A stretch of DNA of 42,690 bases from a virus. Taxonomy: Duplodnaviria; Heunggongvirae; Uroviricota; Caudoviricetes. Below the pieces are notes generated by a model, which worked only from the letters and a program-made list of their open reading frames with translations, had not been told where the DNA came from and did no database searches. Numbering within the stretch: position 1 is the first letter of the stretch; the number at the start of each line of letters is the position of its first letter. Below are positions 1 through 38,360 of the stretch, one piece after another. A program made the position numbers and the translations under genes. The stretch is from IMG/VR virus record IMGVR_UViG_2718217863_000003; one strand, given 5' to 3'.

Positions 1-327
1 ATGACTAAAAATACTCGTTTTTCCCCCGAAGTCCGTCAACGGGCAGTCCGTATGGTTCTGGAAAGTCAGAGCGAATATGACTCACAATGGGCGACAATTT
101 GTTCCATTGCTCCAAAGATTGGCTGTACGCCGGAGACTCTGCGTGTCTGGGTTCGCCAGCATGAGCGGGATACCGGGGGCGGTGATGGAGGGCTCACCAC
201 CGCTGAACGTCAGCGTCTGAAAGAGCTGGAACGTGAAAATCGTGAACTGCGCCGCAGTAACGATATCCTTCGCCAGGCTTCCGCTTATTTTGCGAAGGCG
301 GAGTTCGACCGCCTCTGGAAAAAATGA
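1..327 (+). CDS. IS3-family transposase OrfA (HTH)
   Basis: 108-aa [22 protein letters not shown]..., leucine-zipper-like C-terminus; ends in A-rich slippery run. Confidence 0.9.
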
Positions 328-1214
328 TGCCACTGCTGGATAAGCTGCGTGAGCAGTACGGGGTCGGACCGCTATGCAGCGAACTGCATATTGCCCCGTC
401 AACGTATTACCACTGTCAGCAACAGCGACATCATCCGGATAAACGCAGTGCCCGTGCGCAGCGCGATGACTGGCTGAAGAAAGAGATACAGCGCGTATAC
501 GATGAAAATCACAAGGTATACGGTGTGCGTAAAGTCTGGCGTCAGTTGTTACGGGAAGGTATCAGAGTGGCCAGATGCACTGTGGCACGTCTCATGGCGG
601 TTATGGGACTTGCCGGTGTTCTCCGGGGTAAAAAGGTCCGTACGACCATCAGCCGGAAAGCCGTTGCCGCAGGCGACCGCGTAAACCGTCAGTTCGTGGC
701 AGAACGACCTGACCAGCTGTGGGTGGCTGATTTTACTTACGTCAGCACATGGCGGGGCTTCGTCTATGTGGCGTTCATCATTGATGTGTTTGCCGGATAC
801 ATCGTGGGGTGGCGGGTCTCATCGTCCATGGAAACGACATTCGTGCTGGATGCACTGGAGCAGGCGTTATGGGCCCGTCGACCGTCCGGCACGGTCCATC
901 ACAGTGATAAAGGTTCTCAGTATGTATCGCTGGCCTACACACAGCGGCTTAAGGAAGCCGGATTACTGGCATCAACAGGAAGTACAGGCGACTCGTATGA
1001 CAACGCGATGGCGGAGAGCATCAATGGTCTTTACAAAGCGGAGGTAATACACCGTAAGAGCTGGAAAAACCGTGCAGAAGTGGAACTGGCCACACTCACG
1101 TGGGTGGACTGGTATAACAATCGACGATTGCTGGAAAGGCTGGGCCATACTCCTCCGGCAGAAGCAGAAAAAGCTTATTATGCTTCCATCGGAAACGATG
1201 ATCTGGCAGCCTGA
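324..1214 (+). CDS. IS3-family transposase OrfB (DDE integrase domain), expressed as OrfAB by -1 frameshift
   Basis: 296-aa ORF overlapping orfA in -1 frame at GGAAAAAATGATG; DDE-type motifs. Confidence 0.9.
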
Positions 1215-31925: not shown

Positions 31926-32081
31926 TTACTCCTCAGGTTCGTAAGCTGTGAAGACAGCGACCTCCGTCTGGCCGGTTCGGATTCGTACCTCGCAGAGGTC
32001 TTTCCTCGTTACCAGTGCCGTCACAATGACGGTTAAACAGATGACGATCAGGGCGATTAACATCGCCTTTTGCTGCTTCAT
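31926..32081 (-). CDS. hok: Hok/Gef-family type I toxin (HokD/RelF-like)
   Basis: MKQQKAMLIALIVICLTVIVTALVTRKDLCEVRIRTGQTEVAVFTAYEPEE; AAGGAG RBS. Confidence 0.9.
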   Translation of the reverse strand: MKQQKAMLIALIVICLTVIVTALVTRKDLCEVRIRTGQTEVAVFTAYEPEE

Positions 32082-32340
32082 AGCCTGCTTCTCCTTGCCT
32101 TTCGGCACGTAAGAGGCTAACCTAGATTTGCCGTTCATAGATTGAGCCTCAGATTAATGTTAAGCGTCTTGCAGGACGCGTAATGTTAACTGGGGCTTTT
32201 CTCTATCTGCCTTTTGGTGTTCATGCCTGAGACAGATAGCCTCAAGCACCCGCAGTCATTCTACTTAACTAAGATTTCCCCGCAAACCGTTTTTGTCCGG
32301 CACAGTAAATATCCAACTAAACCAATGGCGTTCGCTGTAT

Positions 32341-32520
32341 TTACCGCCAGTATTCAATGCACATGACCGCCATGAACACCCCTAAAAAAAGGGCATTTAT
32401 ATATCCAAATATTAATATCAAAACATCAACTTTTTCCATATACCTTGCTGTGAAGATGATGGGCATACATGATACGAACAACCAGAACGCAACAAACAAA
32501 AACTGCAATGCGTTTTTCAT
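32341..32520 (-). CDS. small two-TM membrane protein (59 aa), unknown family
   Basis: AGGAGG 4 nt upstream of ATG; MKNALQFLFVAFWLFVSCMPIIFTARYMEKVDVLILIFGYINALFLGVFMAVMCIEYWR; AT-rich. Confidence 0.55.
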   Translation of the reverse strand: MKNALQFLFVAFWLFVSCMPIIFTARYMEKVDVLILIFGYINALFLGVFMAVMCIEYWR

Positions 32521-32749
32521 TATTCCTCCTACAATCAATGTGCAATTACATTTAAACACACCTCAATTTGGCCGAACATATAAATATCTAAACCAGAAAA
32601 AATCACTTACATAGCGTTACAAACTCTTTAGTCTAAATATTCATCGTAAAACATTCCCCATACTTATCAGCCCGTTCTGCGCCAGGTAGCTCATTGCCTT
32701 ATCTGGGAATCTGTAATCAGGTTTCCGGATGCTGGTGGATTTTCGCGTT

Positions 32750-33007
32750 TTAGTTGTTCATAAAAGTGCACAGCTTTAACCAGTTCTTCTGATGTAACCG
32801 GGACTGGCGGGGCAGTGAATAAGGCCTGAATTTCATAGTTCGGCCTGTCGTTACAATCCTCTTTTTTCGGTACATATTTCCAGTCACCAGACCACTACTT
32901 CTCCTGAAAGTCCGTAACGCCTTTTTTTTCACGTAGCGATATCGCCATGCCACTGTTTTTGCTTGCCCCGCCGTTTCATGCCCTTCCTGATAATTAACCT
33001 CGCTCAT
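32750..33007 (-). CDS. hypothetical basic protein (85 aa)
   Basis: ATGA start/stop overlap with upstream gene; internal A8-9 homopolymer. Confidence 0.4.
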   Translation of the reverse strand: MSEVNYQEGHETAGQAKTVAWRYRYVKKKALRTFRRSSGLVTGNMYRKKRIVTTGRTMKFRPYSLPRQSRLHQKNWLKLCTFMNN

Positions 33008-36119: not shown

Positions 36120-36210
36120 GAGTCGCTCCATAAAACTGAACGTCAAAAGTTTAATAATCAAAACCAAAGAAAGTCAAGAAACAAAACCATCTGTGTTTTA
36201 AAATCAAAAC
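36120..36210. promoter_or_regulatory. divergent immunity promoter/operator region (OR; PR and PRM)
   Basis: two 16-bp operator-like repeats GTTTAATAATCAAAAC (36149-36164) and GTTTTAAAATCAAAAC (36195-36210); TAAAAT -10 seven nt before cI ATG. Confidence 0.6.
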
Positions 36211-37792: not shown

Positions 37793-38360
37793 TAGATAAC
37801 CAACGAAGCTAAGGTTGGTAATTAAGGAGTTCTCCACGGGTGAGGTGGAGTGCGTGCGCCGGACACGGGTGAGCATCCGGCACTGACAGTTTACTGAAAG
37901 GATATTTCCCTGAAAAGTCAGACCATAACGCGAAAGCGCACGGCGAGGTAGCTGGTTCATAGATAGCCTGTCGTTAAATTTTCGTCGACCGTGCGCTTCC
38001 GGTTGTGGCAATCCGCGAAATGGCGCGGCGGTAAGTATGGCGGGGTTATTCCTTCCCCCGTTGAGGACACCGGGTTGTCAGGTTGACCATACGCTTAAGT
38101 GACAACCCCACTGCAACGCCCTCTGTTATCAATTTTCTGGTGACGTTTGGCGGTATCAGTTTTACTCCGTGACTGCTCTGCCGCCCTTTTTAAAGTGAAT
38201 TTTGTGATGCGGTGAATGCGGCTAAGCGCACGCGGAACAGTTAAAACCAAAAACAGTGTTATGGGTGGATTCTCTGTATCCGGCGTTAATTGTTAACTGG
38301 TTAACGTCACCTGGAGGCACCAGGCACCGCATCACAAAACTCATTGTTGAGGGCGCGATA

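Follow-up and report, generated by a model that had tools for sequence, protein, structure and literature searches.

The window, that is, the whole 42,690-nt stretch of DNA analysed here (Caudoviricetes record IMGVR_UViG_2718217863_000003), carries on its minus strand a short open reading frame, ORF59, of 59 codons and a TAA stop (32341..32520), delimited by its reading frame, conservation in two clades, hydropathy and predicted fold. The ATG occupies 32520-32518 and the TAA 32343-32341, and the product reads MKNALQFLFVAFWLFVSCMPIIFTARYMEKVDVLILIFGYINALFLGVFMAVMCIEYWR. The Shine-Dalgarno sequence AGGAGG (32525..32530, minus strand) lies 4 nt 5' of the ATG and is polymorphic: among DNA-anchored copies of clade A, the clade of the window, both AGGAGG (n=54) and AGGGGG (n=60) are found. 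ORF59 is contained within a 342-nt module (32299..32640, minus strand), bounded on both sides by mosaic joints relative to related phages, and is preceded there by an AT-rich leader or intergenic part of 120 nt (32521..32640, minus strand), which was covered by promoter and RNA-folding scans. The GC content of the module is 35.5%, compared with 50.4% for the whole window, and falls in the bottom 1.2% of windows of similar size (346 nt). The original prediction, made from the letters alone, had placed a 59-residue ORF with a strong ribosome-binding site in an AT-rich segment, and all three points hold (GC is 37.5% over 32341-32740, the span it had considered). That span also takes in the intergenic leader of 120 nt together with the final part of a decayed gene, which ends at 32641. 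Codons 44-46 of ORF59 contain a T7 homopolymer run (32384..32390, minus strand) at which frameshift alleles occur in public assemblies; these encode products of 55-56 residues (P0019, P0021, P0024, P0025 and P0028), and the run is absent from clade B. The sole other stretch of the window as poor in GC (0.30-0.33) is found in the lysis cassette, at ~26200-26600, over ydfR and the first part of the endolysin gene.

Escherichia phage vB_EcoS-640R1 (ON470612), which appears to be a complete Qin/Rac-like lambdoid prophage, matches the window at 100% identity across the ORF59 stretch. The early-right operon, on the minus strand, runs from a cro/dicC-like gene through cII, O, lygF, several small genes and the decayed gene to ORF59, which is followed 3' by hok/sok, rem, ydfU, rusA and Q. 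ORF59 has the same orientation as cII, O and the genes leading to Q, and its earlier assignment to the nin region is supported: it occupies the nin-equivalent part of the operon. The lysis cassette (S, ydfR, R and Rz) is downstream of Q. The decayed gene (32641..33007, minus strand), recognised by comparison with pPE4, arose by deletion-fusion and a frameshift relative to pPE4 gp20..gp23, and its stop codon forms the left edge of the module. The equivalent gene in CE10 is marked 'frameshifted; internal stop' by PGAP.

A moron, in the sense defined for HK97 and HK022, is an extra gene that separates two genes lying side by side in related phages. The ORF59 module occupies a slot of this kind. 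In pPE4 (L003), the stop codon of the upstream gene is only 74 nt from the hok promoter and the slot is empty; in Rac 442/2 (L004), the same slot is filled by an unrelated 87-residue ORF (HP5); and in the window it is filled by the 342-nt module (32640..32299). By position and by its distinct base composition, the module is a moron. The original prediction had used this term, which is supported for cargo position and composition but not for autonomous expression, as computational scanning found no private promoter and terminator for expression from a repressed prophage. The pPE4 record (PP818812) is deposited as 'Actinobacillus phage vB_Apl-pPE4'; its nin/hok region matches lambdoid prophage DNA of E. 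coli at 92-96% identity, which looks odd for the claimed Actinobacillus host.

The best candidate for a promoter upstream of ORF59 scores 6.6 bits against the position weight matrix (PWM) and is matched by 270 of 300 shuffles. The positive control of the same scan, the hok promoter (TTGCGG-16-TAGAAT; 32258..32286, minus strand), which is the right-hand neighbour of the module, ranks first with 8.3 bits. No consensus promoter or terminator was found inside the module by this computational scan, which weak or non-sigma-70 promoters could escape. A pR-like promoter was located by sequence scan upstream of the cro/dicC-like gene (36148..36177, minus strand), and no terminator-like site was found on the minus strand between it and ORF59. 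Given the lack of a local promoter and of an intervening terminator, ORF59 is probably read as part of the early-right operon and co-transcribed with it from pR after induction. Folding of the leader (z = -0.6 and -1.3) showed neither an unusual RNA structure nor sequestration of the Shine-Dalgarno sequence, and Rfam has no match inside the module, either at the gathering threshold or at E<=1. Rfam matches elsewhere in the window comprise two STnc100 sRNAs (27994-28182 and 28458-28651, minus strand), DicF (38135-38186, plus strand), an ALIL pseudoknot, which is an IS3-type frameshift element (282-398, plus strand), and a tRNA (29005-29077, minus strand).

The next gene is hok/sok, comprising the CDS of a 51-residue Hok toxin (31926..32081, minus strand; Pfam HOK_GEF, PF01848, E=3e-23) and the hok/sok RNA element (32076..32251, minus strand; Rfam RF01794, 112 bits). 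In clade A, hok/sok is intact and lies 90 nt downstream of ORF59. A 70-residue ORF in the window (31926-32138, minus strand) is an in-frame N-terminal extension of hok, that is, the mok frame is fused to it. In L008 (CP178302, 2940-3180), the clade A copy that has diverged furthest, mok instead has a frame of its own that overlaps hok. Such mok/hok frame switching agrees with the indel polymorphisms that related copies show at 32133-32135 and 32215. A related prophage locus, hokW-sokW of Sp5, assists lysis and phage release after induction (PMC8621323).

Two clades and their coding status

Word-indexed protein searches with ORF59 return only near-identical sequences from Escherichia and Shigella. 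A second clade (clade B; P0037 and P0043) emerged when 1.84 billion representative proteins were searched exhaustively with HMMER. Its members also have 59 residues, align without gaps, use the same start and stop, and are 41% identical to clade A (24 of 59 residues shared; E=3.7e-9). Clade B occupies a different site, a prophage or island remnant that lies between ttcA plus an integrase fragment at one end and sitD fragments, uspF and ompN at the other. At some clade B loci (e.g. L215, 72-6106, CP028754), a complete sitABCD lies to one side of the integrase fragment and ORF59, with sitD fragments on the opposite side; this arrangement suggests that the island junction at ttcA/uspF has been scrambled or duplicated. 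About 55 nt past the ORF59 stop, clade B retains a fragment of hok that is 80% identical to hok of the window over 62-66 nt (blastn E about 1e-12). The fragment spans Hok residues 24-45 and contains an internal stop, and is thus dead, so that clade B combines an intact ORF59 with a dead hok. Since hok lies 3' of ORF59 in both clades, the ORF59-hok order is older than the clade split, and the linkage is ancestral.

At the nucleotide level, the two ORFs are 60% identical, with 25, 16 and 31 differences at codon positions 1, 2 and 3, respectively. The Nei-Gojobori method gives a pS of 0.72, a pN of 0.33 and a dN/dS of ~0.19. The sense frame is the only frame that is open in both clades, and detectable DNA similarity between them is limited to the ORF, the flanks being unalignable. 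In a neutral simulation (72 random substitutions, 20,000 runs), 2.8% of runs left the frame open, 0.26% left it open with both start and stop preserved, and 0.045% combined an open frame with the observed amino acid identity; all features, including hydrophobicity, were reproduced in none of the 20,000. Frame, length and amino acid character are thus conserved at a dN/dS below 1, and on this comparative evidence ORF59 is a genuine protein-coding gene that has been under long-term purifying selection. Peptide strings of ORF59 had no match in the searchable literature. SMP7, a candidate for ORF59 from a Ribo-seq preprint on CFT073 (10.64898/2026.09.28.754932), was rejected because it lies in the microcin island. 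K-12 does not carry the clade B locus, so that K-12 ribosome profiling is uninformative for this clade.

Members of the family occur only in Escherichia and Shigella, mainly in chromosomal prophages and their remnants. Among 5,426 complete RefSeq genomes of E. coli, 1,570 contain the clade A segment at >=95% identity and 1,045 contain clade B, the latter including Nissle 1917, ATCC 11775 and ST131 strains. A scan of species-representative genomes found three loci. Searches with tblastn found ORF59 in 3 of 50,697 phage records and in six non-mobilizable plasmid records, which are probably chromosomal fragments. No third clade was found in the species-representative genomes, the 50,697 phage records or the plasmids. 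Three points were absent from the original prediction: the identity of hok/sok as the next gene, the ancestral linkage of the two, and the mainly chromosomal-remnant habitat.

Variation within the clades

Two population samples were built independently of whether ORF59 is intact. The clade A sample consists of 119 viral contigs anchored by a 30-mer in the upstream leader, and the clade B sample of 28 metagenome contigs anchored in the hok remnant; variation within clade B was examined at loci L209 and L220-L247. Of the clade A copies, 116 extend into ORF59 and 114 of these have it intact, as do all 28 clade B copies. In a comparison of genes at the same clade A loci, ORF59 is intact in 114 of 117 assessable copies and the similarly small DUF7167 and phrog_519 genes in 62 of 91 and 67 of 92, respectively, a contrast among related copies that may reflect one or two inherited lesions counted repeatedly. 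The mutations seen would be expected to produce only ~0.6 nonsense events, so the intactness of ORF59 is weakly informative.

In three independent comparisons, variability in ORF59 is 3-8 times below that of its flanks. Common segregating sites in clade A number 2.8 per 100 nt in ORF59 versus 9-10 in the immediate flanks (Fisher p=0.007). In clade B, nucleotide diversity is 0.0025 in ORF59 versus 0.0101 upstream. Between L008 and the window, ORF59 differs at 2.3% of sites and three flanks differ at 9%, 18% and 24%. The changes that do occur within lineages are almost all non-synonymous, at ~14 N to 1 S: clade A has the replacements V16A, V31I, I37M, Y40H and M53T plus singletons, together with one synonymous singleton, and clade B has M6V, S11N and A31V. 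L008 carries three 1-nt deletions and a 3-nt insertion in ORF59, which still totals 180 nt. These deletions represent either real decay or an assembly error; the neighbouring hok, ydfU and integrase genes of L008 are intact.

Such replacement-heavy variation could reflect recent relaxation, recent spread of the module or diversifying selection. Because variation is almost all non-synonymous and intactness is uninformative, present-day constraint on the protein is not demonstrated. ORF59 might be a relic, a gene that was functional for long and now drifts in cryptic prophages and remnants, too recently to have decayed. The ratio of 14 N to 1 S is compatible with neutrality (P=0.18) and incompatible with an omega of 0.19 (P=8e-5), and a McDonald-Kreitman-type table (fixed, 47 N and 25 S; polymorphic, 14 N and 1 S) gives p=0.033. 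The triple frameshift in L008, the frameshift alleles at the T7 run and the many copies in which the neighbours are pseudogenes or IS elements fit the same picture, as does the small number of nonsense events expected. However, ORF59 consistently shows the lowest variability in its surroundings, every clade B copy of it is intact, with a dead hok nearby and sitD and integrase genes in fragments, and the window places it in an apparently complete prophage. Taking both sides together, we regard a drifting relic as unlikely.

Predicted product and possible roles

Kyte-Doolittle analysis of ORF59 gives hydrophobic segments at about residues 4-24 and 33-55, and an AlphaFold model based on the two-clade alignment contains helices at 2-26 and 31-58 (mean pLDDT 72). 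The two hydrophobic helices noticed at the outset are borne out by both methods. In clade B, charged residues are found at the N-terminus (R2 and K3), in the loop (E26 and E30) and at the C-terminus (E56 and R59), and this distribution favours an N-in/C-in arrangement. The product is thus predicted to be a two-TM hairpin of the inner membrane with a short periplasmic loop. Invariant in both clades are M1, L5, L8, W13, S17, C18, P20, I21, I22, T24, L36, F38, G39, N42, A43, L44, E56, W58 and R59, and G47 is conserved except in one variant. These residues include three motifs: W13 with S17-C18-x-P20-I-I-x-T24 in helix 1, which includes a Ser-Cys-x-Pro kink; F38-G39-x-x-N42-A43-L44-x-x-G47 in helix 2, which places a polar Asn on a face of small residues (G39, A43 and G47); and E56-x-W58-R59 at the C-terminus. 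Features of this sort, the Asn among small residues and the Ser-Cys-x-Pro kink, favour helix-helix association in membrane proteins. The conserved residues thus suggest helix-helix packing, either as self-association, in which case the hairpin would be oligomeric, or as binding to a host membrane protein.

Scans of both clades against Pfam, PHROGs, NCBIfam and PADLOC gave no significant match, in agreement with the earlier statement that the family was not recognised. The top sub-threshold matches (DUF4212, E=0.07; phrog_2720, E=0.93; TIGR04104, E=0.2) are put down to hydrophobic composition. PADLOC-DB has no family for ORF59 at E<=1, a profile search of the PDB gave no match, and Foldseek against BFVD returned only generic hairpins (best E=0.88), a 59-residue hairpin being too small to discriminate between folds. 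None of these searches revealed homology pointing to superinfection-exclusion, abortive-infection or toxin proteins.

We hold with moderate confidence that ORF59 is translated AT-rich accessory cargo upstream of hok/sok, transcribed from pR and encoding a hairpin membrane protein. The cargo would be an insertion immediately 5' of the hok/sok promoter, within the early-right operon of lambdoid prophages of the Qin/Rac type. After induction or infection, transcription from pR would be followed by efficient translation from the strong Shine-Dalgarno sequence, and the product would enter the inner membrane and form a helical hairpin there, N-in/C-in, whose short loop faces the periplasm. In early lytic growth, the hairpin may self-associate or bind a host membrane protein, and could act as a membrane-active accessory factor in phage-host conflict, possibly alongside Hok or by excluding other phages. 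Given a real gene, membrane perturbation or growth inhibition alongside Hok is a tentative assignment, exclusion of other phages is somewhat unlikely, and both modulation of a host membrane protein and the absence of any current function are unlikely; this division is rough, conditional on the gene being real, and not additive with the confidence placed in rival explanations. Nothing yet indicates an unusual mechanism.

Two further readings are each considered doubtful. ORF59 could be a small hydrophobic type I toxin controlled by an unseen antisense or trans-acting RNA, and so form a second toxin-antitoxin unit beside hok/sok. It has fewer than 60 residues, is very hydrophobic, has a strong Shine-Dalgarno sequence, is prophage-borne, adjoins a bona fide type I system and, like many type I toxins, has been missed by annotation. 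However, its product has two TM segments rather than one, no plus-strand (antisense) promoter rises above background in the scan, which need not detect every promoter, the Rfam search of the module at E<=1 and the leader folding were negative, and no Pfam toxin family matches. Alternatively, ORF59 could be a functional partner of Hok, a two-TM hairpin retained beside hok from a time preceding the clade split, that acts at the inner membrane and gates it, antagonises it as an immunity protein or cooperates with it, or an exclusion or defence factor under diversifying selection. If true, diversifying selection would account for replacement-only recent changes in a conserved stretch, and ORF59 would also have been kept in E. 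coli remnants after the death of hok.

It is very improbable that ORF59 is not a gene, that is, a chance ORF in a T-rich, AT-rich spacer that is hydrophobic by composition and possibly has a function at the DNA or RNA level. The deficit of synonymous variation and the high nucleotide identity of L008 despite its frameshifts could hint at constraint on nucleotides, and PGAP leaves the ORF unannotated, with no RefSeq feature under either the clade A or the clade B ORF among the entries listed. Against this, frame, start, stop, length, the shared residues and hydrophobicity are kept at 40% nucleotide divergence, a combination that the neutral runs never produced; codon position 2 is the most conserved and the flanks are unalignable; and there is no RNA family or structure signal. 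Where databases do have a gene here, it is on the other strand. The GenBank records of vB_EcoS-640R1 and PhiR42_1 call the opposite-strand ORF and leave ORF59 uncalled, and the only RefSeq plasmid record with a PGAP gene at this position has the antisense strand called as 'hypothetical protein'. In the window this antisense ORF (32357..32614, plus strand) is open and has 85 residues. It is annotated in ON470612, where it bears the name 'hornerin' (252 nt), in ON470619 and PV340562 and, in a shorter version, in NZ_CP148542, but it is scarcely credible as a real gene, being unconserved, interrupted by two stops in clade B, truncated in L008 and NZ_CP148542, at a pN/pS of ~0.9, without a family match and opposite in orientation to the operon.

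Conservation between the clades, dN/dS, frame openness and the simulations thus argue that ORF59 is the coding sequence and that the antisense annotation is wrong. ORF59 corrects the 'hornerin' and antisense 'hypothetical protein' calls, and a large share of complete E. coli genomes carries a conserved gene for a 59-residue membrane protein that is unannotated or annotated on the wrong strand. The family adds to the under-charted small membrane proteins of prophages, and the old two-gene order of ORF59 followed by hok/sok is open to simple genetics.

Comparison with known small membrane proteins

Several groups of small membrane proteins share features with ORF59 but differ in detail. Hok/Gef toxins are likewise small, hydrophobic, prophage-borne and located in the inner membrane, as predicted for ORF59. 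However, they consist of one TM segment and a periplasmic domain, whereas ORF59 has two TM helices; ORF59 does not match PF01848 (clade A at E<=1, clade B at E<=10), and no mok-like leader ORF, fold-back RNA or antisense RNA was detected for it. GhoT/OrtT, a two-TM membrane toxin of E. coli with 57 residues, has a similar size and the same two-helix hairpin that is predicted for ORF59. In this case, the differences are that ORF59 matches no Pfam model, toxin families included (clade A at E<=1, clade B at E<=10), and has no GhoS-like partner nearby.

Class II holins and pinholins such as S21 are two-TM proteins of about 70 residues. They resemble ORF59 in being phage-encoded and in having two TM helices with the N-in/C-in topology predicted for ORF59. 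However, ORF59 lies outside the lysis cassette, matches no holin family in Pfam or PHROGs, and ends in only EYWR, whereas holins typically have a charged tail. A function as the lysis holin was rejected on account of the separate S/R/Rz cassette after Q and the lack of a holin family match.

Morons include the HK97 gp15 membrane protein. ORF59 resembles them in its insertion into a slot, its atypical GC content and its nature as a small membrane protein dispensable for core phage functions; it differs in its lack of a detectable promoter or terminator and in belonging to the early-right operon, not to the late region. It showed no sequence relation to known moron products. T4 Imm and P22 SieB are small phage proteins of the inner membrane that mediate superinfection exclusion. 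They have no sequence or PADLOC match to ORF59, but they are likewise small, phage-encoded and inner-membrane proteins and would be plausible analogues of its role. Set beside these proteins, ORF59 represents a new family of small proteins whose kind is familiar, that of the prophage accessory membrane peptides, and not a new type of system.
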